Shown: positions 2,594-36,173 of the stretch, piece after piece
Layout: the number at the start of each line of letters is the position of its first letter
Numbering within the stretch: the stretch's first letter is position 1
Origin: a virus
Taxonomy: Duplodnaviria > Heunggongvirae > Uroviricota > Caudoviricetes
Strand: one strand, 5' to 3'
IMG/VR virus record: IMGVR_UViG_2565956709_000006
DNA length: 36,173 bases
Notes under the pieces: model-generated
The model's input: only the letters and a program-made list of their open reading frames with translations
The model's database searches: none
Told to the model about the DNA's origin: nothing
Made by a program: the position numbers and the translations under genes

Positions 2594-3643
2594 ATGGCTA
2601 ATACTGTAAAAATATCCAGTTGTGAGTTAATCAACGCTGATTGCCTGGAATTTATCCAGACCTTACCGGAAAACTCTGTCGATCTTATAGTCACAGACCC
2701 GCCATACTTTAAAGTGAAACCCGAGGGCTGGGATAACCAGTGGAAGGGCGACGATGATTACCTGAAGTGGCTGGACCAGTGTCTGGCGCAGTTCTGGCGG
2801 GTGCTGAAACCTGTCGGAAGTCTTTACCTGTTCTGTGGTCATCGCCTGGCATCTGATATCGAAATCATGATGCGTGAACGCTTCAGTGTGCTGAACCATA
2901 TTATCTGGGCGAAGCCGTCCGGACGCTGGAACGGATGCAACAAGGAAAGCCTGCGGGCGTATTTCCCCGCCACAGAGCGCATTCTGTTCGCGGAACATTA
3001 TCAGGGGCCGTATCGTCCGAAAGATGCCGGGTATGCGGCGAAGGGCAGTGCACTGAAACAGCATGTGATGGCCCCGCTGATTTCTTACTTTCGTGATGCG
3101 CGCGCGGCCCTGGGGATAACGGCAAAACAGATTGCAGATGCCACAGGAAAGAAAAACATGGTGTCGCACTGGTTCAGTGCCAGTCAGTGGCAGCTACCGA
3201 ACGAAAGCGATTATCTGAAATTACAGTCGCTGTTTGCCCGGGTGGCAGAAGAGAAACATCAGCGCGGTGAACTGGAAAAGCCCCACCACCAGCTGGTGGA
3301 TACGTATACGTCACTGAACCGGCAGTATGTGGAGCTGCAGAGTGAATATAAGCATCTGCGGCGGTATTTTGGTGTGACGGCGCAGGTGCCGTACACGGAT
3401 GTGTGGACACATAAACCGGTGCAGTTCTATCCCGGGAAACATCCGTGCGAAAAACCGGCAGAAATGCTGCAGCAGATAATCAGCGCAAGCAGTCGTCCGG
3501 GAGACCTGGTTGCAGATTTTTTTATGGGCTCAGGTTCAACGGTAAAAGCTGCACTGGCGCTCGGGCGTCGTGCGATTGGCGTTGAACTGGAGACCGGACG
3601 TTTTGAGCAGACAGTCAGGGAAGTTCAGGATTTAATCGTTTGA
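2594..3643 (+). CDS. DNA methyltransferase (N6-adenine type, beta-class), orphan, no cognate restriction gene
   Basis: 349-aa ORF. DPPY catalytic motif near the N-terminus (VTDPPYF) and FxGSGST AdoMet-binding motif near the C-terminus (ADFFMGSGSTV); motif IV before motif I is the beta-class order. No adjacent endonuclease ORF. Confidence 0.85.
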   Translation: MANTVKISSCELINADCLEFIQTLPENSVDLIVTDPPYFKVKPEGWDNQWKGDDDYLKWLDQCLAQFWRVLKPVGSLYLFCGHRLASDIEIMMRERFSVLNHIIWAKPSGRWNGCNKESLRAYFPATERILFAEHYQGPYRPKDAGYAAKGSALKQHVMAPLISYFRDARAALGITAKQIADATGKKNMVSHWFSASQWQLPNESDYLKLQSLFARVAEEKHQRGELEKPHHQLVDTYTSLNRQYVELQSEYKHLRRYFGVTAQVPYTDVWTHKPVQFYPGKHPCEKPAEMLQQIISASSRPGDLVADFFMGSGSTVKAALALGRRAIGVELETGRFEQTVREVQDLIV

Positions 3644-3692
3644 AACGGATGAGATTGCAGAATTAATTACGCACCATTATTATTCTGCTCCC

Positions 3693-3768
3693 GGCCCTTT
3701 AGCTCAGTGGTGAGAGCGAGCGACTCATAATCGCCAGGTCGCTGGTTCAAATCCAGCAAGGGCCACCA
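3693..3768 (+). tRNA. tRNA with anticodon CAU (tRNA-Ile2-like, lysidine type, or Met)
   Basis: Hand-folded cloverleaf: acceptor GGCCCTT/AAGGGCC, D-arm GCTC..GAGC, anticodon loop CTCATAA (anticodon CAT), T-arm GCTGG-TTCAAAT-CCAGC, 3' CCA. Closely resembles E. coli ileX-type tRNA. One A-C mismatch at the top of the anticodon stem. Confidence 0.85.
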
Positions 3769-3775
3769 TCACATA

Positions 3776-3852
3776 CCGCCATTAGCTCATCAGGAAAGAG
3801 CGCCAGCCTTCGAAGCTGGTTGCGCGGGGTTCAAGTCCCCGATGGCGGTCCA
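3776..3852 (+). tRNA. tRNA-Arg (anticodon UCG)
   Basis: Hand-folded cloverleaf: acceptor CCGCCAT/ATGGCGG, anticodon stem CCAGC/GCTGG with loop CTTCGAA (anticodon TCG), T-arm CGGGG-TTCAAGT-CCCCG, 3' CCA. Confidence 0.8.
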
Positions 3853-3865
3853 TTATCTGCATCAT

Positions 3866-3942
3866 GCGTTGTTAGCTCAGCCGGACAGAGCAATTGCCTT
3901 CTAAGCAATCGGTCACTGGTTCGAATCCAGTACAACGCGCCA
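3866..3942 (+). tRNA. tRNA-Arg (anticodon UCU, reads rare AGA)
   Basis: Hand-folded cloverleaf: acceptor GCGTTGT/ACAACGC, anticodon stem ATTGC/GCAAT with loop CTTCTAA (anticodon TCT), T-arm ACTGG-TTCGAAT-CCAGT, 3' CCA. Confidence 0.8.
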
Positions 3943-4179
3943 CACTTATTTTCCCTGGCTCGCTTTTGTGGGCCTTTTTTTTAAATGTCTCACAATTTAG
4001 GCGGTTGACTGTTGTCTGGTTTGCGGGGAGTTTGTTAAAAGAAACTGGCATGGTGAATCCCCCTGTGCGGAGGGGCAATCAGCGAGTAGGTATATGGGAT
4101 AATCGCGGATTCAGGTGCTGGTACTGAATTCACCGGGAGGCACCCGGCACCATGCAATGGCACATAGCGCCACTCTCCA

Positions 4180-4210
4180 GCCCCTCTCCGGAGGGGCTGT
4201 TTATATTGAT
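4180..4210 (+). terminator. Rho-independent terminator in the tRNA to nanS-p intergenic region
   Basis: Perfect 7-bp stem GCCCCTC/GAGGGGC with 4-nt loop (4180..4197) followed by a T-rich tract TGTTTATATTGATTTT. Confidence 0.55.
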
Positions 4211-4233
4211 TTTGTCAGATGTGAGTAAACTGC

Positions 4234-4569
4234 TTATGGACTTTGTTGTTTTAGCCCATAAGGACATATTTGCAGAGTGCAACGGTTATTAAAGCATTCA
4301 TTCAATACGTTATCTGTATTTGTAGGGCATTCCTGGCTGTTTTTGATTAAATTCCAGAATGTTTTATTGAATGGTACTACGTTGTAAATGGTTACAGGTA
4401 GCACTTTGTTATTGAGCATGATGCCTGTGTGAGTCAGTGTAAATATACTTTCAGGAGGTAAGAAAGCATCCGATTGATACCAGATTATTAATTTTATTTT
4501 ACTCCATATGACTGAAAAAGATATTCCGCATGATGGCTGGATAACTGTATCAATCACAATCCACTTCAT
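4234..4569 (-). CDS. hypothetical protein (AT-rich candidate ORF in the stx-equivalent slot)
   Basis: 111-codon open frame in an AT-rich region where stop codons are frequent by chance. Plausible RBS (AGGAAA about 6 nt upstream of the ATG) on the minus strand. No recognisable motifs. Confidence 0.3.
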
Positions 4570-4829
4570 TTAGTTTCCTTGTTTATGCCTTGCTGGTGAT
4601 GTTCTGAAAAGTATAAATGATATTTTTGATTGTAAACCATAGAGCAGAATTATTTTTCTGATGTTGTTTATTGTTTATTTAAATGCAGGGTGGTTTATAT
4701 CTCGTCTTGTAGTTTATCCATGCATATCTGCTTGATGATGAGGTTTTTATTTAAGGTATGGTTTTGTGTTTTTTCTGTATTACATGTCAGGTATTTTAAA
4801 GAATCATTTTTCAGATGGTGGAAAGAACC

Positions 4830-6683
4830 ATGGCATTTAAACACTATGATGTTGTCAGGGCGGCGTCGCCGTCAGATCTTGCGGAAAAGCTGACACATAA
4901 ACTGAAAGAGGGCTGGCAGCCGTTTGGTAGTCCGGTGGCCATAACCCCTTATACCCTGATGCAGGCGATTGCAGCAGAAGGTGATGTGGTCGTCAGTGGT
5001 GCAACTGAGCCGGAGTGGTACTACGTCATCGTACTGGCCGGGCAATCCAATGCCATGGCTTACGGTGAAGGGCTTCCGCTTCCGGATTCTTACGATGCGC
5101 CCCACCCACGCATTAAGCAACTGGCCCGTCGCAACACAGTGACTCCCGGTGGTAAAGCATGCGCATTTAACGACATCATTCCGGCAGACCACTGCCTGCA
5201 TGATGTTCAGGATATGAGCGCACTGAATCATCCGAAGGCAGACCTGAGCAAAGGGCAGTACGGCTGTGTCGGCCAGGGCTTACATATTGCCAAAAAACTG
5301 CTTCCGTATATCCCGAATAACGCGGGGATCCTGCTGGTACCATGCTGTCGTGGTGGTTCGGCATTCACCCAGGGCGCGGAGGGGACATTCAGTGCGGACA
5401 CGGGGGCCAGCCAGGATTCGGCACGCTGGGGTGTGGGTAAACCGTTATATCAGGACCTGATCGCACGCACCAAAGCGGCATTACAGAAGAACCCGAAAAA
5501 TGTGTTGCTGGCGGTGTGCTGGATGCAGGGCGAATTTGACATGAGCGCTGCCACCTACGCACAGCAACCGGACCTGTTCACGGCCATGCTGAAGCAGTTC
5601 CGTACTGACCTTTCCGGATTTAACGCGCAGTGCCATGGCGGCAGTGCTGCAGTTGTACCGTGGATTTGTGGCGACACGACGTATTACTGGAAAAACACAT
5701 ACGGCACACAGTATGACTCCGTCTACGGCGCATACAAAAACAGGGAGAGCGACAACGTTTTCTTTGTGCCGTTCATGACCGACGGTAACGGCAACAACAC
5801 GCCCACCAACTTACCGGCAGAAGACCCGGATATTGCTGATGCAGGTTATTACGGCGCGCAATCCCGTAGTAATGGTAATTGGGTATCGTCAAACCGCCCG
5901 ACACATTTCAGTTCATGGGCGCGCAGGAGCATTATTCCGGATCGTATGGCAACCGCTATTCTGAACGCAGCCGGGCGCACCTCAGCCTTCATCAGTGGTA
6001 AGGCACCGGAAATCAAACCCTCGCCCGGCGTCGACACGCCATCGGGGCCGTCTGAAGATGCATCCGTACGCACAATCTCCCTGTTGCCGACAGCCGGAGA
6101 GGCTGCTGCGCAGGGCTGGACCATTAAGGACGGCGGAATTCAGTTGTCGGGTGGTGTATTTAAGATCACCAAGCAGAGCAATAAAACTTGGTCCCTGATG
6201 CATCCGGTGGATGACGCAGTCTCCCTGCTGACACGGGGTGGCAGACTGAGCTGTAAGTTTCGACTGTCAGGCGCACTGACCAACAACCAGTTCGGTCTGG
6301 GAATTTATCTGTATACCGATGTAGCGTTACCTGACGTCGTGGCGATGACCGGGACTGGTAACCCGTTCCTGATGTCGTTCTTCACCCAGACCACAGACGG
6401 CAAACTGAATCTGATGCATCACAGGAAAGCAGGAAACACAAAGTTGGGCGAGTTCGGGAATTACAGTAACGACTGGCAGACGCTGGAGCTGGTGTTCACC
6501 GCCGGCAGTGCCACGGTTACTCCGAAACTGAATGGAGTGGCTGGCCCGGCATTCCAGGTCATAAAAGACAGTCTGACACTGGGGCTGAATGCGCTGACGC
6601 TGACGGATATTACCAAAAATGCAGCGTATGGCGTTGAGATAGAAAGTCTGGTGCTGGAGATAAATGCACCAGCATCATCATAA
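4830..6683 (+). CDS. nanS-p: NanS-p-type sialate O-acetylesterase (SGNH/SASA hydrolase with N-terminal DUF1737-like domain)
   Basis: Long ORF (track start 4815; the ATG at 4830 has the better RBS, GGTGGA). N-terminus AFKHYDVV..., SASA/SGNH esterase motif VLAGQSNAMAYGE. Same position (after the tRNA cluster, before the holin) as the esterase gene of Stx-converting phages. Assigned from recalled homology. Confidence 0.7.
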   Translation: MAFKHYDVVRAASPSDLAEKLTHKLKEGWQPFGSPVAITPYTLMQAIAAEGDVVVSGATEPEWYYVIVLAGQSNAMAYGEGLPLPDSYDAPHPRIKQLARRNTVTPGGKACAFNDIIPADHCLHDVQDMSALNHPKADLSKGQYGCVGQGLHIAKKLLPYIPNNAGILLVPCCRGGSAFTQGAEGTFSADTGASQDSARWGVGKPLYQDLIARTKAALQKNPKNVLLAVCWMQGEFDMSAATYAQQPDLFTAMLKQFRTDLSGFNAQCHGGSAAVVPWICGDTTYYWKNTYGTQYDSVYGAYKNRESDNVFFVPFMTDGNGNNTPTNLPAEDPDIADAGYYGAQSRSNGNWVSSNRPTHFSSWARRSIIPDRMATAILNAAGRTSAFISGKAPEIKPSPGVDTPSGPSEDASVRTISLLPTAGEAAAQGWTIKDGGIQLSGGVFKITKQSNKTWSLMHPVDDAVSLLTRGGRLSCKFRLSGALTNNQFGLGIYLYTDVALPDVVAMTGTGNPFLMSFFTQTTDGKLNLMHHRKAGNTKLGEFGNYSNDWQTLELVFTAGSATVTPKLNGVAGPAFQVIKDSLTLGLNALTLTDITKNAAYGVEIESLVLEINAPASS

Positions 6684-29484: not shown

Positions 29485-32391
29485 ATGACAGTAAAAATTT
29501 CTGGCGTGCTTAAAGATGGCACAGGAAAACCAGTACAGAACTGCACCATTGTGCTGAAGGCCAGACGAACCAGCAGCACGGTGGTGGTGAACACGGTGGC
29601 CTCTGAAAATCCGGATGAAGCCGGACGTTACAGCATGGATGTTGAGCATGGTCAGTACAGCGTCACCCTGCTGGTTGAAGGTTTTCCGCCTTCACATGCC
29701 GGGACCATTACCGTCTATGAAGGTTCCAGACCAGGTACGCTGAATGATTTTCTCGGTGCCATGACGGAGGATGATGTCCGACCGGAGGCACTGCGCCGCT
29801 TTGAGCAGATGGTGGAAGAGGTGTCACGTAACGCCTCCGCGGTTGCACAGAATACGGCAGCCGCGAAAAAATCAGCCAGCGATGCCAGTGCATCAGCCAG
29901 CGAGGCGGCAACTCATGCAACCGATGCTGCAGCCTCAGCACGTGCCGCCAGCACGTCAGCCGGACAGGCCGCGTCGTCGGCTCAGTCAGCGTCTTCCAGC
30001 GCAGGAACGGCATCGACAAAGGCCCGTGAAGCAGCAAAAAGTGCTGCTGCTGCAGAGTCATCAAAAAGCGCGGCAGCTACCAGCGCCAGTGCCGCGAAAA
30101 CGTCAGAAACGAATGCCGCAGCATCACAAAAATCGGCAGCCACTTCTGCATCCACAGCGACCACGAAGGCGTCAGAAGCTGCCACCTCGGCACGGGGTGC
30201 GGCGGCCTCAAAAGAGGCAGCGAAATCATCAGAAACGAACGCATCATCAAGCGCCAGTAGTGCCGCTTCCTCGGCAACGGCGGCAGGCAATTCCGCGAAG
30301 GCGGCAAAGACGTCTGAGACAAACGCCAGGTCTTCTGAAACGGCAGCGGGACAGAGCGCCTCGGCTGCGGCAGGCTCAAAAACAGCGGCTGCGTCGTCTG
30401 CCAGTGCCGCGTCAACAAGTGCCGGGCAGGCCTCAGCCAGTGCCACCGCCGCCGGAAAATCGGCAGAAAGCGCCGCATCATCCGCTTCAACAGCCACAAC
30501 GAAGGCTGGCAAAGCCACTGAGCAAGCCACTGCAGCAGCGAGGTCTGCTTCTGCAGCAAAAACCTCTGAAACAAATGCAAAGACTTCAGCAGACAATGCT
30601 GCTTCCTCTAAGGCGGCAGCCGCATCGTCAGCCAGTTCAGCGGCGTCATCGGCATCATCTGCGTCTGCTTCAAAAGATGAGGCGACCAGACAAGCGTCAG
30701 CAGCGAAAGGTAGTGCCACGACAGCAACAATGAAAGCATCAGAGGCAGCTGGTAGTGTGACGGCGGCAGCTCAGAGCAAAAGTACGGCGGAATCCGCGGC
30801 AACGCGCGCCGAGACAGCAGCAAAACGGGCAGAGGATATTGCATCCGCCGTGGCGCTGGAGGATGCGAGCACGACGAAAAAGGGGATAGTACAGCTCAGC
30901 AGTGCGACCAACAGCACTTCCGAGTCACTGGCGGCAACGCCAAAAGCGGTTAAGGCGGTAATGGGTGAAACGAACAAGAAAGCGCCCTTAAATAGTCCTG
31001 CACTGACCGGAACGCCAACAACACCAACTGCGCGACAGGGAACGAATAATACCCAAATCGCAAGCACGGCTTATGTTATGGCTGCGATCGCTGCCCTCGT
31101 GGACTCGTCGCCTGACGCACTGAATACGCTGAACGAGCTGGCTGCGGCGTTGGGCAACGACCCGAATTTTGCGACCACCATGACTAACGCGCTTGCGGGT
31201 AAGCAACCGAAAGATGCCACCCTGACGGCGCTGGCCGGGCTTGCTACTGCGGCAGACAGGTTTCCGTATTTTACGGGGAATGATGTTGCCAGTCTGGCAA
31301 CCCTGACAAAAGTTGGGCGGGATATTCTTGCGAAATCGACCGTTGCCGCCGTTATCGAATACCTCGGTTTACAGGAAACGGTAAACAAGGCTGGTAACGC
31401 CGTTCAGCGTTCCGGCGATAAAATGACCGGAGAACTGAAAATTGGCACGGTGAATGCGCTGCGAATTTTCAATGATGCCTTCGGTCTTATTTTCCGTCGT
31501 TCAGAAGATTTTCTTCATTTCATTCCGACGGCTGAAGGACAAGGCGAAAACGGTGATATAGGCCCATTAAGGCCATTCGCTATAAATCTGAGAACAGGTG
31601 CTATATCTGTCAGCCACGGGGCCAAAATTGATGGTGGGCTGGCGCTTGGTACAGATAACGCACTGGGCGGTAATTCCATTACTCTCGGAGATAACGACAC
31701 TGGTATTAAACAGGGCGGCGACGGTGTCCTTTTATTCTATTCAAATGGACAACTGGCATTTGGACTTCAACCCGCATCTGCTGATTTTTATAAGCGGGTT
31801 GCATATATTCATCAGGGAATAATTCCTGATGGAAGTGGCGCATTTGCAGACCAGTTGAATAATGCCACCGCGCCTTTTGTTCAGACGCAGTTTGCCTGGA
31901 ATCCCACTCCTGGTGGTCATTACGTGCCGATAGTTAAGGGCTTGTCCATTCGCAATGGACAGGGCTATCCCGGCGCGGTCAGCTTTGGGTATTTACTGAC
32001 AGAACAGTATGGATTTCCGGTTCCATGTATTCATATGCGTGGCGATGGCGGTAATGATGCTTTATGGCAGTTTAACCCGAACGATAAATCCTTTATTTCA
32101 CCGGGTGCTCTTATTGCGGGTGGCGTCCGTTATAACACCGATGGAAATATATTTGGTGGGTGCTGGGGTTCAAACTTAAATGATTACCTGAATAGTTCTT
32201 TTATCAGAAATGTGCGTCTGGGAGGCAGACGTTCTGACACATTATATCGCGGAGGACTTTGCGAACCAGGTAATGGTCATGTGACAACAGGATTGCAAAT
32301 TATTGGTGAGGTTGATGGAGATGACTGGATGGTGTCACGACCACTACAAAAATACATTTCTGGTAACTGGTATAACGTTGAACAGGCATAG
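29485..32391 (+). CDS. stf: side tail fibre protein (constant N-terminal part, Ala/Ser-rich repetitive shaft, variable C-terminal tip)
   Basis: 968-aa ORF. Conserved prophage Stf N-terminal domain (MTVKISGVLKDGTGKPVQNCTIVLKA...), then about 330 aa of low-complexity Ala/Ser/Thr-rich repeats (recurring KTSETNA units). The C-terminal third begins at a gix-like recombination site and shares the motif ALGGNSI.LGDNDTG.KQ with the silent alternative tip on the opposite strand. Confidence 0.9.
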   Translation: MTVKISGVLKDGTGKPVQNCTIVLKARRTSSTVVVNTVASENPDEAGRYSMDVEHGQYSVTLLVEGFPPSHAGTITVYEGSRPGTLNDFLGAMTEDDVRPEALRRFEQMVEEVSRNASAVAQNTAAAKKSASDASASASEAATHATDAAASARAASTSAGQAASSAQSASSSAGTASTKAREAAKSAAAAESSKSAAATSASAAKTSETNAAASQKSAATSASTATTKASEAATSARGAAASKEAAKSSETNASSSASSAASSATAAGNSAKAAKTSETNARSSETAAGQSASAAAGSKTAAASSASAASTSAGQASASATAAGKSAESAASSASTATTKAGKATEQATAAARSASAAKTSETNAKTSADNAASSKAAAASSASSAASSASSASASKDEATRQASAAKGSATTATMKASEAAGSVTAAAQSKSTAESAATRAETAAKRAEDIASAVALEDASTTKKGIVQLSSATNSTSESLAATPKAVKAVMGETNKKAPLNSPALTGTPTTPTARQGTNNTQIASTAYVMAAIAALVDSSPDALNTLNELAAALGNDPNFATTMTNALAGKQPKDATLTALAGLATAADRFPYFTGNDVASLATLTKVGRDILAKSTVAAVIEYLGLQETVNKAGNAVQRSGDKMTGELKIGTVNALRIFNDAFGLIFRRSEDFLHFIPTAEGQGENGDIGPLRPFAINLRTGAISVSHGAKIDGGLALGTDNALGGNSITLGDNDTGIKQGGDGVLLFYSNGQLAFGLQPASADFYKRVAYIHQGIIPDGSGAFADQLNNATAPFVQTQFAWNPTPGGHYVPIVKGLSIRNGQGYPGAVSFGYLLTEQYGFPVPCIHMRGDGGNDALWQFNPNDKSFISPGALIAGGVRYNTDGNIFGGCWGSNLNDYLNSSFIRNVRLGGRRSDTLYRGGLCEPGNGHVTTGLQIIGEVDGDDWMVSRPLQKYISGNWYNVEQA
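31352..31377. repeat. left crossover site (gix/pix-like 26-bp inverted repeat) inside stf
   Basis: TTATCGAATACCTCGGTTTACAGGAA. Matches the reverse complement of 34433..34458 at 22 of 26 positions and resembles the known gix/pix consensus (TTCCTGTAAACCGAGGTTTTGGATAA). Confidence 0.8.
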
Positions 32392-32406: not shown

Positions 32407-32934
32407 ATGCAACATCTGAAAAATATTACCGCCGGAAACCCCAAAACCATTGAGCAGTATCAGCTTACGAAAAAAGCTGGCGTTATCTGGCTATATACAG
32501 AAGACGGTAAAAACTGGTATGACGAATTAAAAAACTTTCAGGATGATACTTTAAAAATAGCTTATGACCAGAAGGGGATTATTCGTTGTATTGAGAAAGA
32601 CGTATCAACACTTAACCCTGACGGGTTAAGTGTTGTTGAGTTACCGAATATAACAGCCAACCGTCGCGCCGATATCTCGGGAAACTGGAAGTTTCTGGAT
32701 GGTAAAGTAGTAAAGCGGGAATATACAAAACAGGAACTGCAACAGCAGGCAGAGTTACAAAAAGCCGCTTTGCTTTCCGAAGCGGAGTCTGTGATTCAAC
32801 CGCTGGAACGTGCTGTCAGACTGAATATGGCAACTGATGAGGAACGCACACGACTGGAATCATGGGAACGCTACAGCGTTATGGTCAGCCGTGTGGATAC
32901 TGCAAAGCCTGAATGGCCACAGAAACCAGAATAA
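32407..32934 (+). CDS. tfa: tail fibre assembly protein (expressed copy)
   Basis: 175-aa ORF with RBS AGGAGAATAT, directly after stf. Tfa-family N-terminus ([38 protein letters not shown]). Paralogous to the convergent minus-strand copy. Confidence 0.9.
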
Positions 32935-34432: not shown

Positions 34433-34458
34433 TTCTCGTAAACCGAGGTTTTAGATAA
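34433..34458. repeat. right crossover site (gix/pix-like 26-bp inverted repeat)
   Basis: TTCTCGTAAACCGAGGTTTTAGATAA, inverted partner of 31352..31377, located just upstream of the pin gene as in Mu G / P1 C / e14 invertible segments. Confidence 0.8.
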
Positions 34459-34512
34459 TGGCGGTTTCTGGCCTGTATGGCATGATTTGTGCTTTTGGAC
34501 GGGAGATTCAGC

Positions 34513-34745
34513 GTGCTGATTGGCTATGTAAGGGTATCAACAAATGACCAGAATACAGATCTGCAACGAAACGCTCTTGTTTGTGCAGGATATGAACAAA
34601 TATTTGAAGATAAATTAAGCGGAACAAGGACAGGCCGACCTGGATTAAAACGTGCTTTAAAGCGCCTTCAAAAAGGTGACGCACTGGTTGTCTGAAAACT
34701 GGACTGACTGGTTCACTGTATGCGGCATCTTGTCGTGCTGGTGGT
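34513..34745 (+). pseudogene. pin: pin-type serine DNA invertase, inactivated (nonsense mutations and 3' truncation)
   Basis: GTG start. The first 59 codons encode VLIGYVRVSTNDQNTDLQRNALVCAGYEQIFEDKLSGTRTGRPGLKRALKRLQKGDALVV (catalytic Ser in YVRVST). Then TGA where the family has Trp, a second in-frame TGA four codons later, and after about codon 76 the sequence runs into a tfa 3' fragment. The resolvase catalytic core and C-terminal HTH are missing. Confidence 0.8.
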
Positions 34746-34746
34746 G

Positions 34747-34887
34747 GAAGCCTGGAAAAAGTATCGGGTGTTGCTGAACCGTGTTGATACATCAACTGCA
34801 CCTGATATTGAGTGGCCTACGAACCCTGTCAGGGAGTAATCATTGGGATTATGCCGCAGCACGTCTTAAGCAAGAACGTGCTGCGGT
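34747..34887 (+). repeat. direct repeat copy A: tfa 3' end fragment plus hairpin
   Basis: Encodes ...[30 protein letters not shown]-stop, followed by an 11-bp-stem hairpin (CCGCAGCACGT ... ACGTGCTGCGG). About 88 percent identical to 35796..35938, including an identical 39-nt core CGTGTTGATACATCAACTGCACCTGATATTGAGTGGCCT. Confidence 0.8.
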
Positions 34888-34893
34888 TGGATG

Positions 34894-35562
34894 CTATTTT
34901 TTCCCTGAAGCGGAAAACATTACTACAGTACCTTGAACCTTGGTTTTAACATTCTCGAAATGCTCTGAGAGTATATGTGTTAAGCCTTCTTCGGAATCTT
35001 TTGTGTTTGAAAAGATGCCTTTCTGATTGTAAATGCGCATCAGTTTTTGACCGAAGCTATTGTGCACAACTCCATCGCCAAGAATTGTGGCTCCGTATAG
35101 AGTTCCATCGTCAGTTAAGGCCTGCGCCGCATTGCGTATTACACAGCTTTTTGTAGATATATTTCCAGGCAGGCAGTGAAGAAGGTAAAACATGGAAATG
35201 GAATCAAATTGACCATGTAACGCCGCGGGATAAGGTTCAAAAACATCATGGCTAATTTTATGTTTAATTTTTGATTCCCCAGCCCTTGTAGATGCCGCGT
35301 TCAGGCTAGCTTCGTTCAAATCCATTAAAGATATCAGACTACTCTCAGGTACGTGAGTAAGGTAAAACCCAGTTCCAACACCAATATCCAGATGGTTGTT
35401 ACCTACATGTTCCAGAAAGTGTGGAAGAAGGTGTTCCTTTGTAGGACATCCCCATGCAAGCCGATTTGATACTCCCAAAACCCACCAGTCATAAAGCTTT
35501 AGGGTAAGTGGTGTGTAAATTTTAGCCCCATCATCTGTGTTTTTTTTCATTGATTTCACCAT
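34894..35562 (-). CDS. class I SAM-dependent methyltransferase (small-molecule/protein/RNA type, not a DNA MTase by motifs)
   Basis: 222-aa minus-strand ORF (alternative start at 35550 has the better RBS). Motif I LDIGVGTGFY, acidic post-I residue (LMDLNE), motif II FDSISMFYLLHCLP, motif III LTDDGTLYGATIL. AT-rich relative to the phage structural genes. Bracketed by direct repeats. Confidence 0.7.
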   Translation of the reverse strand: MVKSMKKNTDDGAKIYTPLTLKLYDWWVLGVSNRLAWGCPTKEHLLPHFLEHVGNNHLDIGVGTGFYLTHVPESSLISLMDLNEASLNAASTRAGESKIKHKISHDVFEPYPAALHGQFDSISMFYLLHCLPGNISTKSCVIRNAAQALTDDGTLYGATILGDGVVHNSFGQKLMRIYNQKGIFSNTKDSEEGLTHILSEHFENVKTKVQGTVVMFSASGKK

Positions 35563-35618
35563 GTTATAGTTTTATTTGTGAATTAAATCAATTATGGCGA
35601 TGAATTACAAGGGGTTAA

Positions 35619-35888
35619 ATGCTGCCGCAGCATAGCGATATTGAAATAGCCTGGTATGCTTCGATACAGCAGGAGCCGAATGGCTGGAAGACCGTCACCA
35701 CACAGTTCTACATCCAGGAATTCAGTGAGTATATTGCGCCACTGCAGGATGCTGTAGATCTGGAAATCGCAACGGAGGAAGAAAGATCGTTGCTGGAGGC
35801 ATGGAATAAATATCGGGTATTGTTGAATCGTGTTGATACATCAACTGCACCTGATATTGAGTGGCCTGCAAATCCTGTCAGGGAGTAA
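35619..35888 (+). CDS. tail fibre assembly protein C-terminal-domain remnant (truncated tfa-like ORF)
   Basis: 89-aa ORF with RBS AAGGGG. The C-terminus ...[37 protein letters not shown] aligns with the Tfa C-terminal region. Lacks the Tfa N-terminal half. Confidence 0.5.
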
Positions 35889-35938
35889 TCATTGGGATTA
35901 TGCCGCAGACACGTCGTATGCAGGAACGTGCTGCGGTT
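35796..35938 (+). repeat. direct repeat copy B: tfa 3' end fragment plus hairpin
   Basis: See copy A. Together the two copies bracket the SAM methyltransferase gene. Confidence 0.8.
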
Positions 35939-36002
35939 AGTTTGTGAGCTTTCGATAGTGGTTGTTATTTTTGCCCTTATTTGTTCCGGAGGCCATGGTT
36001 CA

Positions 36003-36173
36003 ATGGTCCGTCTGCCCCCTGTGGTGATGTCAGCAAAATCAGCCACTGCGCGAACCACAATAGCCCGGGAAGATGCTGAAGATCACCAGGTAAAGCTATC
36101 AGCGCAGAAACTGGAAGAACTGCTCGCATCAATGGTTAAGGATGAGGTTGATCGCAATGATGGGATTTATTGA
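36003..36173 (+). CDS. small hypothetical protein (56 aa) at the window edge
   Basis: Internal ATG of track ORF 35892..36173 with RBS GGAGG 10 nt upstream. Encodes MVRLPPVVMSAKSATARTTIAREDAEDHQVKLSAQKLEELLASMVKDEVDRNDGIY. The upstream part of the track ORF overlaps the repeat hairpin and is unlikely to be coding. Confidence 0.35.
   Translation: MVRLPPVVMSAKSATARTTIAREDAEDHQVKLSAQKLEELLASMVKDEVDRNDGIY

Follow-up and report, generated by a model that had tools for sequence, protein, structure and literature searches.

A ybcY methyltransferase cassette between the 3' ends of two tfa genes, probably in the form carried by ompW-integrated Escherichia coli prophages

Near the right end of the window, the 36,173-nucleotide stretch of viral DNA (Caudoviricetes) held as IMG/VR record IMGVR_UViG_2565956709_000006 and analysed here at its full length, a gene for a class I S-adenosylmethionine (SAM)-dependent methyltransferase lies on the minus strand between two direct repeats. 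The gene is ybcY, and each repeat comprises the 3' end of a tail fibre assembly gene, tfa, followed by a hairpin. The prophage of the window is integrated at ompW beside the trp operon, and the locus of the sequence type 131 (ST131) strain EC958 is 99.8% identical. We consider it likely that the whole region represents the lambdoid prophage cargo cassette that bears ybcY, in the version found in ST131-type E. coli with a prophage at ompW. On nucleotide comparison the locus is already known: it is the tfaD'-ybcY-tfaX module of the K-12 prophage DLP12 (b0561-b0563), which has long been annotated. Positions 34742-35865 are 97.2% identical to the tfaD 3' end-ybcY-tfaX sequence of DLP12, and the encoded protein matches PHROG 2132 over profile positions 1-218 of 218 (E = 4e-157), as expected of an orthologue of DLP12 YbcY (b0562). 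The label 'YbcY' is also used in the RAST annotation of phage PhiR68_2. The cassette is therefore not newly recognised. A first-pass annotation, made from the letters of the window, correctly described an AT-rich cargo gene in a tail-fibre-proximal cargo region, flanked by repeats. The features of the region are as follows.

34433-34464, no strand: right crossover site (gix/pix-like) of an invertible tail-fibre segment, with its inverted partner at 31346-31377.
34513-34741, plus strand: pin', a truncated, dead serine invertase gene (Pfam Resolvase).
34742-34839, plus strand: tfa 3' fragment (tfaD-type), the last 32 codons and stop, forming the coding part of the left repeat.
34854-34886, no strand: hairpin L, with perfect arms of 11 bp, between the convergent tfa stump and ybcY.
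34894-35562, minus strand: ybcY methyltransferase open reading frame (ORF) of 222 aa; 34894-35550 when started at the fifth codon, M5 (218 aa).
35563-35618, no strand: spacer of 56 nt.
35563-35591, minus strand: predicted ybcY promoter, with -35 TTGATT at 35591-35586, a 17-nt spacer and -10 TATAAC at 35568-35563.
35619-35888, plus strand: tfaX-like chimeric ORF of 89 aa, with the coding part of the right repeat at 35791-35888.
35903-35936, no strand: hairpin R, the second copy, with a 1-nt bulge.
35985-36173, plus strand: DUF4376-domain pseudogene fragment running past the end of the window, named from the Prokaryotic Genome Annotation Pipeline (PGAP) annotation of the EC958 locus.

Gene order and orientation are kept between the window and K-12, and the hexamers of the divergent ybcY and tfaX promoters are the same. 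The two loci differ in the state of the genes and in their neighbours. ybcY is a pseudogene in K-12 but intact in the window; K-12 tfaD has 187 aa and is fused to terminase remnants, whereas the upstream tfa of the window is cut to 32 codons and fused to pin'. On the right side, K-12 tfaX stops at 61 aa and is followed by appY-ompT, whereas in the window tfaX has the full tfa terminus and a second hairpin, followed by DUF4376'-Rha-ash-ompW'. The downstream order is taken from the PGAP annotation of EC958, where the DUF4376 fragment, Rha and ash precede an ompW' fragment that adjoins trpA; Pfam did not confirm DUF4376 on the part of the fragment lying inside the window. In K-12 ybcY the M5 start codon is lost and a frameshift follows just after.

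We surveyed 5426 complete E. coli genomes, counting ybcY together with the 5' part of tfaX as present at a coverage of at least 80%. This unit occurs in 3798 of them at 97-100% identity, in up to 6 places per genome, and 15 phage records carry it as well, among them ev243, 2G7b, Kati, Turner and the PhiR series. ybcY is intact in 11 of the 12 loci compared. In the most eroded DLP12 remnants (uropathogenic E. coli (UPEC) strain 998, 2870-5854) nothing but argU-int'-tfa'-ybcY-ompT remains, yet ybcY persists there as an undamaged gene of 218 aa. Since the module is already annotated in K-12 and present in about 70% of complete E. coli genomes, the layout of the window is an ordinary one.

The direct repeats span 34742-34888 and 35791-35938. 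Pairwise BLAST aligns them with 133 of 148 positions identical (90%), 15 positions differing and one gap (E = 3e-53), and a repeat search resolves them into two halves separated by a 1-nt indel, 34742-34859/35791-35908 (118 nt, 91%) and 34860-34888/35910-35938 (29 nt, 90%). The longest identical run is 39 nt, 34780-34818 = 35829-35867. The tfa C-terminus EAW(K/N)...(T/A)NPVRE* can be read in either copy, and the stop codons end at 34839 and 35888. The hairpins have their arms at 34854-34864/34876-34886 (L) and 35903-35914/35926-35936 (R), and fold at -28.5 kcal/mol (z = -4.95) and -24.1 kcal/mol (z = -2.99), respectively. The coordinates, the identity of about 88% and the 39-nt core given in the first-pass annotation are thus essentially right, and its description of each repeat as a tfa C-terminal fragment plus hairpin agrees with the shared C-terminus, the Caudo_TAP match of the right copy and the folding energies. 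In our judgement the repeats are probably the homologous 3' ends, with downstream hairpins, of two tfa genes from different phage lineages, and not a duplication made by an insertion.

For the left copy, the origin can be followed in related prophages. Its sequence forms the end of an intact tfa of 194 aa in O104:H4 and O145 prophages and is 97% identical to the K-12 tfaD 3' end. In O104:H4 and O145 the undamaged arrangement is lom-stf-tfa (complete, 194 aa)-ybcY (convergent)-tfaX', and the joint of a full-length tfa with hairpin and ybcY is found in 2608 genomes. In the window, the last 32 codons of tfa (...|EAWKKY...) are fused in the same reading frame to pin', which is 93-95% identical to phage invertase genes up to about 34703. 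pin' retains the N-terminal Resolvase domain (Pfam E = 4.6e-15), carries two in-frame TGA stops and lacks the C-terminal half; PGAP labels it 'recombinase family protein, incomplete' in EC958. By these comparisons the left repeat is the stump of a formerly full-length lambda-type tfa, cut to 32 codons by a deletion that fused tfa in frame to pin. The idea that the left repeat is the scar of an insertion does not hold.

The inverted repeats 31346-31377/34433-34464 (32 nt, 84% complementary) show that pin once served an invertible tail-fibre segment. The crossover site TTCTCGTAAACCGAGGTTTTAGATAA occurs once in the window, and we take the site at 34433-34464 to resemble gix/cix sites. The segment 31346-34464 has the form of a Mu G-segment-like invertible cassette, with the stf C-terminus and tfa on the plus strand and an alternative tfa' and stf' C-terminus on the minus strand. 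As the invertase pin' is dead, the tail-fibre switch is frozen in one orientation.

The hairpin is not restricted to this cassette. Its sequence (CCGCAGCACGT...ACGTGCTGCGG) is dispersed over 5120 of the 5426 genomes with a median of two places. A solitary copy lies directly before ydfJ' where the Qin prophage ends, and another lies near ybhB in strain E2; copies outside the window are seen at locus coordinates L026 2501-2544, L017 6661-6717 and L027 3001-3055. The ybcY loci of Citrobacter and Salmonella are homologous to the window only from 34882/34888 onward, so that by alignment the hairpin is an element of the phage backbone and lies outside the ybcY unit. Strain SJ7 matches the window at 96.9% identity from 35882 onward as far as the window reaches, but has different cargo ahead of this stretch; on this alignment hairpin R belongs to the right-end backbone of ompW-integrating prophages. 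A match of the Rfam model CssrB to hairpin L was dismissed (32.6 bits against a gathering score of 76). RefSeq lists a 45-aa 'hypothetical protein' (WP_001309429.1) at 34812-34949 on the plus strand, running through hairpin L and overlapping the ybcY 3' end on the opposite strand; this call is almost certainly spurious.

The joints between cassette and backbone were located as breaks in homology. On the right side, homology breaks at 35843 in ev243, 2G7b, O157 and O145 and at 35865/6 in K-12, Kati, PhiR68_2 and E2, and both of these common breaks fall inside the 39-nt core; in the UPEC remnant the break lies at 35645, and ybcY runs straight into ompT. On the left side, the breaks lie in the hairpin at 34848/34854 in Kati, PhiR68_2 and O157 and at 34766 in ev243. 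The junction of pin' with the tfa fragment (pin'::tfa') is followed by hairpin-ybcY-tfaX in 427 genomes, and directly by a diguanylate-cyclase gene (dgc), via a chimeric tfa 3' end, in 95 genomes. Strain ET76 is an example of the second form: its pin'::tfa' junction is 97.1% identical to 34438-34820, it has a chimeric tfa end and no ybcY, and it continues at 98.1% identity into the dgc-ybhB-bioA flank which follows tfaX in strain E2. The comparison of ET76 with the window indicates that a single left module has been joined to two right modules by recombination inside tfa 3' ends. With one pin'::tfa' junction and two downstream modules, this constitutes a natural experiment showing that the tfa 3' core of about 40 nt works as a recombination joint.

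Other cargo is found at the same joints. SJ7 carries IS1, a protein kinase gene and a transposase fragment before DUF4376'-ompW', and O157:H7 carries katN/yciEFG-like genes. In O157:H7 ECP19-2498 (L013 1290-3503) a manganese catalase gene, two yciE/yciF-like ferritin-like genes and one yciG-like gene lie between tfa and hairpin-ybcY, all of them paralogues of chromosomal stress genes. The chromosomal yciEFG genes directly adjoin the ompW attachment site of the prophage type of the window, which suggests that this block was picked up by imprecise excision. The first-pass expectation of variability bounded by the repeats holds in part: different cargo sits at the joints in related prophages, but ybcY and the tfaX 5' part form a fixed unit. 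Lambdoid prophages undergo mosaic exchange at conserved tail-fibre and tfa sequences, and cargo ('exchangeable effector') loci lie downstream of their tail-fibre genes. The locus resembles these in having its joints in short conserved tfa 3' sequences and in its varied cargo (katN/yciEFG-like genes, kinase with insertion sequence, dgc, an alpha/beta hydrolase gene with ompT, appY). We see no qualitative difference; the locus is one more example.

In phages, the ybcY unit sits just behind tfa and convergent to it, with the 3' 177 nt of a second, different tfa, annotated as tfaX, on its other side. From these observations we propose that the conserved tfa 3' core and the hairpin act as short patches of homology, at which recombination between co-resident or co-infecting lambdoid phages would rejoin the cassette to different left and right neighbours. 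Such recombination would account for the presence of the unit in more than one prophage backbone and in about 70% of the E. coli genomes.

The repeats could also be used in a different way, with ybcY leaving and entering by RecA-dependent recombination between its own flanking repeats, as a live switch between presence and absence. The 39-nt identical core is long enough for RecA, and the pin'::tfa' junction exists with and without ybcY. The predicted deletion product, built as a synthetic sequence of left flank, one repeat and the right flank of the window, was found in 0 of the 5426 genomes while the occupied form is common, and over their full length the repeats are just 90% identical. The ybcY-less pin'::tfa' form sits at the lambda attachment site (bioA-ybhB), with a tfa terminus PIIE*; its right flank is dgc-ybhB and not DUF4376'-ompW'. 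Since both right flank and tfa terminus differ, these genomes are better read as products of module swapping between prophages, and we regard such a switch as unlikely. Of the first-pass proposal that ybcY was inserted or can be exchanged at tfa 3' ends, the exchange part finds support in joints that lie in the core and hairpin and in the two modules behind pin'::tfa', whereas no pop-out that keeps the flanks of the window is seen in the 5426 genomes.

An origin of the repeats by in-place duplication is less probable still. Here, ybcY would have inserted into the 3' part of a single tfa with a long target duplication, and the copies would have drifted apart. The layout, in which a tfa end and hairpin recur on the far side of the insert, does resemble a flanking duplication. 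In the 30 shared codons, however, there are 7 synonymous differences and 3 nucleotide changes within two replacement codons (K/N, T/A), a predominance of synonymous change that is unexpected for a freely drifting dead copy and fits two functional tfa genes that diverged under selection in different phages. In addition, the right copy lacks the hairpin or ends elsewhere in the core in K-12, Kati, ev243 and O157, and the hairpin is found by itself at other prophage ends. An origin from two separate tfa genes accommodates these findings, and we consider the duplication quite improbable.

Within the repeats, ybcY differs from its surroundings in composition. The ORF has 41.1% GC compared to 52.1% for the whole window. 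The gene probably starts at M5 and not at the first ATG, because that ATG directly adjoins the -10 hexamer and varies between loci. Its place is taken by ACG in the UPEC remnant and by AAG or TAG in Salmonella; M5, preceded by GGTGA, is the start in each of the 35 aligned homologues. The minus-strand ORF of 222 aa with the motif LDIGVGTGFY was correctly recognised in the first pass and is revised in this respect to a probable 218 aa. In the spacer, the ybcY strand carries TTGATT-17-TATAAC, and the -10 hexamer TATAAC is kept in the Citrobacter and Salmonella homologues (loci L031, L033 and L028). For K-12 ybcY, the identical hexamers are listed as a constitutive promoter of the RpoD holoenzyme by in-vitro genomic SELEX (systematic evolution of ligands by exponential enrichment), and the K-12 ybcY/tfaX spacer is marked as bound by H-NS (PMC3946193). 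The gene is probably silenced by H-NS.

DNA homology to a non-phage Citrobacter locus spans exactly 34882-35705. These limits define the ybcY unit as the gene with about 140 nt upstream (approximately 34882-35705), without hairpin or tfa. Lambdoid morons are units of promoter, gene and terminator and have been described for HK97 and HK022. From its sequence ybcY looks like an autonomous, horizontally acquired, AT-rich single-gene cargo unit of this kind ('moron') with a predicted sigma-70 promoter of its own. It combines deviant composition (41% versus 52% GC) with presence and absence on the same pin'::tfa' backbone, and it shares with the HK97/HK022 morons that it is a single extra gene with a predicted promoter of its own, runs opposite to the late operon and has a flanking hairpin. 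The difference is that the hairpin belongs to the phage backbone and has no U-tract on the ybcY strand, so that it is at most a putative terminator.

Relatives of ybcY outside these prophages are likewise found as lone genes. The protein database holds 2296 homologues of 56-90% identity, and nine of them examined for context have no conserved neighbour or operon. They lie beside cybB/hrpA in Salmonella, after livF in Enterobacter and near purB in Citrobacter; homologues also occur in Yersinia, Erwinia and Klebsiella chromosomes. An Aeromonas homologue (L021, 57% identity) lies between transposase genes, and Salmonella homologues of 87% identity (L031/L032) lie on a ccdA/ccdB-kfrA plasmid-like contig and on IS-rich contigs. 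Homologues borne on the plasmid-like contig or between transposase genes invariably travel singly, preceded by a long spacer. An esterase or alpha/beta hydrolase gene was considered as a linked neighbour (Enterobacter, Erwinia, several phages) and set aside as too inconsistent to use.

The YbcY protein has the hallmarks of a class I SAM methyltransferase: a GxGxG motif I (LDIGVGTGFY), an acidic residue ending strand 2 and a seven-stranded alpha/beta fold. D59-I-G61-V-G63-T-G65 and D81 are invariant in 35 homologues, and Pfam gives matches to Methyltransf_12, 23, 25 and 11, with Methyltransf_12 at 37.5 bits against a cut-off of 30. The AlphaFold2 model (predicted local distance difference test, pLDDT, 90.4) shows a canonical Rossmann methyltransferase core with an N-terminal helical cap. 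Profile search of PDB sequences returns JHAMT (7e-6), UbiG (1e-3) and PmtA (0.08). Compared with the small-molecule class I methyltransferases JHAMT, UbiG, Coq5, PmtA, NodS and MM_2633, YbcY is just 11-21% identical, and no NCBIfam or Pfam subfamily reaches its cut-off; in NCBIfam, no model comes near. The invariant motifs YDWWVL, LLHCLPG and YNxKGIFSN are specific to the family and have no annotated counterpart. Our best inference is a soluble Rossmann-fold methyltransferase for a small, possibly lipophilic substrate. Foldseek, proposed in the first pass as a way to a subfamily, yields a resemblance to small-molecule-type folds, in a flat list at template modelling (TM) scores of about 0.6.

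A more specific assignment, to a PmtA-like phospholipid N-methyltransferase or some other enzyme that modifies the envelope and so alters the surface of the lysogen, draws on the top Foldseek match, the phosphatidylethanolamine N-methyltransferase 8ys9 (E = 1.5e-11, TM 0.61-0.67), on the lipophilic substrates of the nearest sequence relatives JHAMT and UbiG, and on the neighbouring surface genes lom and ompT. YbcY scores 15.7 bits with the PmtA equivalog model NF045882, far from its cut-off of 390, and the similarity to 8ys9 is no better than that to many other methyltransferases. We hold this assignment to be improbable and prefer the broader class given above.

The tfaX-like ORF next to ybcY has two parts. 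Its codons 1-31 come from reading through sequence upstream of ybcY, and the second tfa contributes its last 177 nt at 35712-35888. The former part is also kept in the non-phage Citrobacter locus, where the ybcY unit including the tfaX 5' part extends to 35705. The truncated tfa-like ORF of the first pass (35619-35888) therefore exists, but only 35712-35888 is tfa-derived. A functional tfaX, either as an 89-aa short tail-fibre chaperone with its own ribosome-binding site or as the small RNA IS009, could be argued from a match to PHROG 2341 over its full length, an AAGGGG motif 6 nt before the ATG, a tfaX-side promoter listed in the K-12 SELEX data (PMC3946193) and a score of 112.5 bits (E = 2.7e-26) with Rfam RF02111 IS009 on 35642-35845. 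As a tail fibre assembly protein, however, the ORF covers just positions 75-131 of 131 of Pfam Caudo_TAP (PF02413; E = 6e-25). Its length is not kept, being 28, 32, 61, 61, 66, 82, 89, 89, 101, 101 and 106 aa in 11 other loci, and a twelfth lacks it altogether; its ATG shares bases with the proposed -10 hexamer. The IS009 score falls short of the gathering score of 117, and the model also matches other, ordinary tfa 3' ends more weakly (34717-34796, 32717-32906), so that what it captures is apparently the coding sequence of tfa genes and not a gene for an RNA. Judged by domain coverage and comparison between loci, tfaX is a decaying chimeric remnant and not a conserved gene, and a functional tfaX is very unlikely. 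Antisense to its 5' part, PGAP lists a 'DinI family protein, incomplete' in strain YJ4 (L014 4316-4396, corresponding to about 35637-35717, minus strand), which Pfam did not confirm.

Least likely of all is a role in anti-restriction or epigenetic control by methylation of DNA or RNA, since YbcY is a single domain of 218 aa without a target-recognition domain, a regex search of the protein finds no motif IV (DPPY/NPPY; [DNS]PP[YFWH]) and no PC dipeptide, as the first pass had noted, its best matches are small-molecule enzymes, and defence-system models give no significant match, the sole PADLOC match being insignificant.

Several points weigh against the picture of an autonomous, mobile cargo gene with a small-molecule substrate. 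The promoter support comes from in-vitro SELEX in K-12, where ybcY is a pseudogene. Hairpin L begins 7 nt beyond the ybcY stop; it lacks a U-tract in the ybcY direction and has a poor one in the tfa direction, and a terminator scan flags solely the plus strand of hairpin R. The hairpin may serve as a terminator, as a joint for recombination or in some other way. The breakpoints were mapped by BLAST on about 15 loci out of 6897 ybcY places, and ybcY may have been either gained or lost on the pin'::tfa' backbone. The ybcY alleles are too similar to measure selection, with one informative pair (8 differences, pN/pS 0.29). The flat list of structural matches makes the substrate class a weak inference.

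We conclude that the locus represents textbook-style lambdoid mosaicism at tail-fibre chaperone genes and no new kind of system. The genes of the module have been named in K-12 for decades, and they are among the commonest prophage remnants in E. coli. No paper on the function of ybcY or tfaX turned up in the library searched, whether under the gene names or under the RefSeq protein accessions. As a tentative reading of low probability, YbcY could be a methyltransferase that was spread by phages and became domesticated, and whose action on a membrane lipid or lipophilic small molecule is of advantage to the lysogen. If true, this would explain the retention of an undamaged ybcY in about 70% of E. 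coli genomes, down to the most eroded DLP12 remnants next to ompT, and the K-12 pseudogene would hide the phenotype. With the gene intact in most E. coli isolates and broken in K-12, the function of YbcY could never be tested in the standard strain. The lasting value of the locus lies in the natural experiment at the pin'::tfa' junction and in the attention that it draws to the orphan methyltransferase YbcY.

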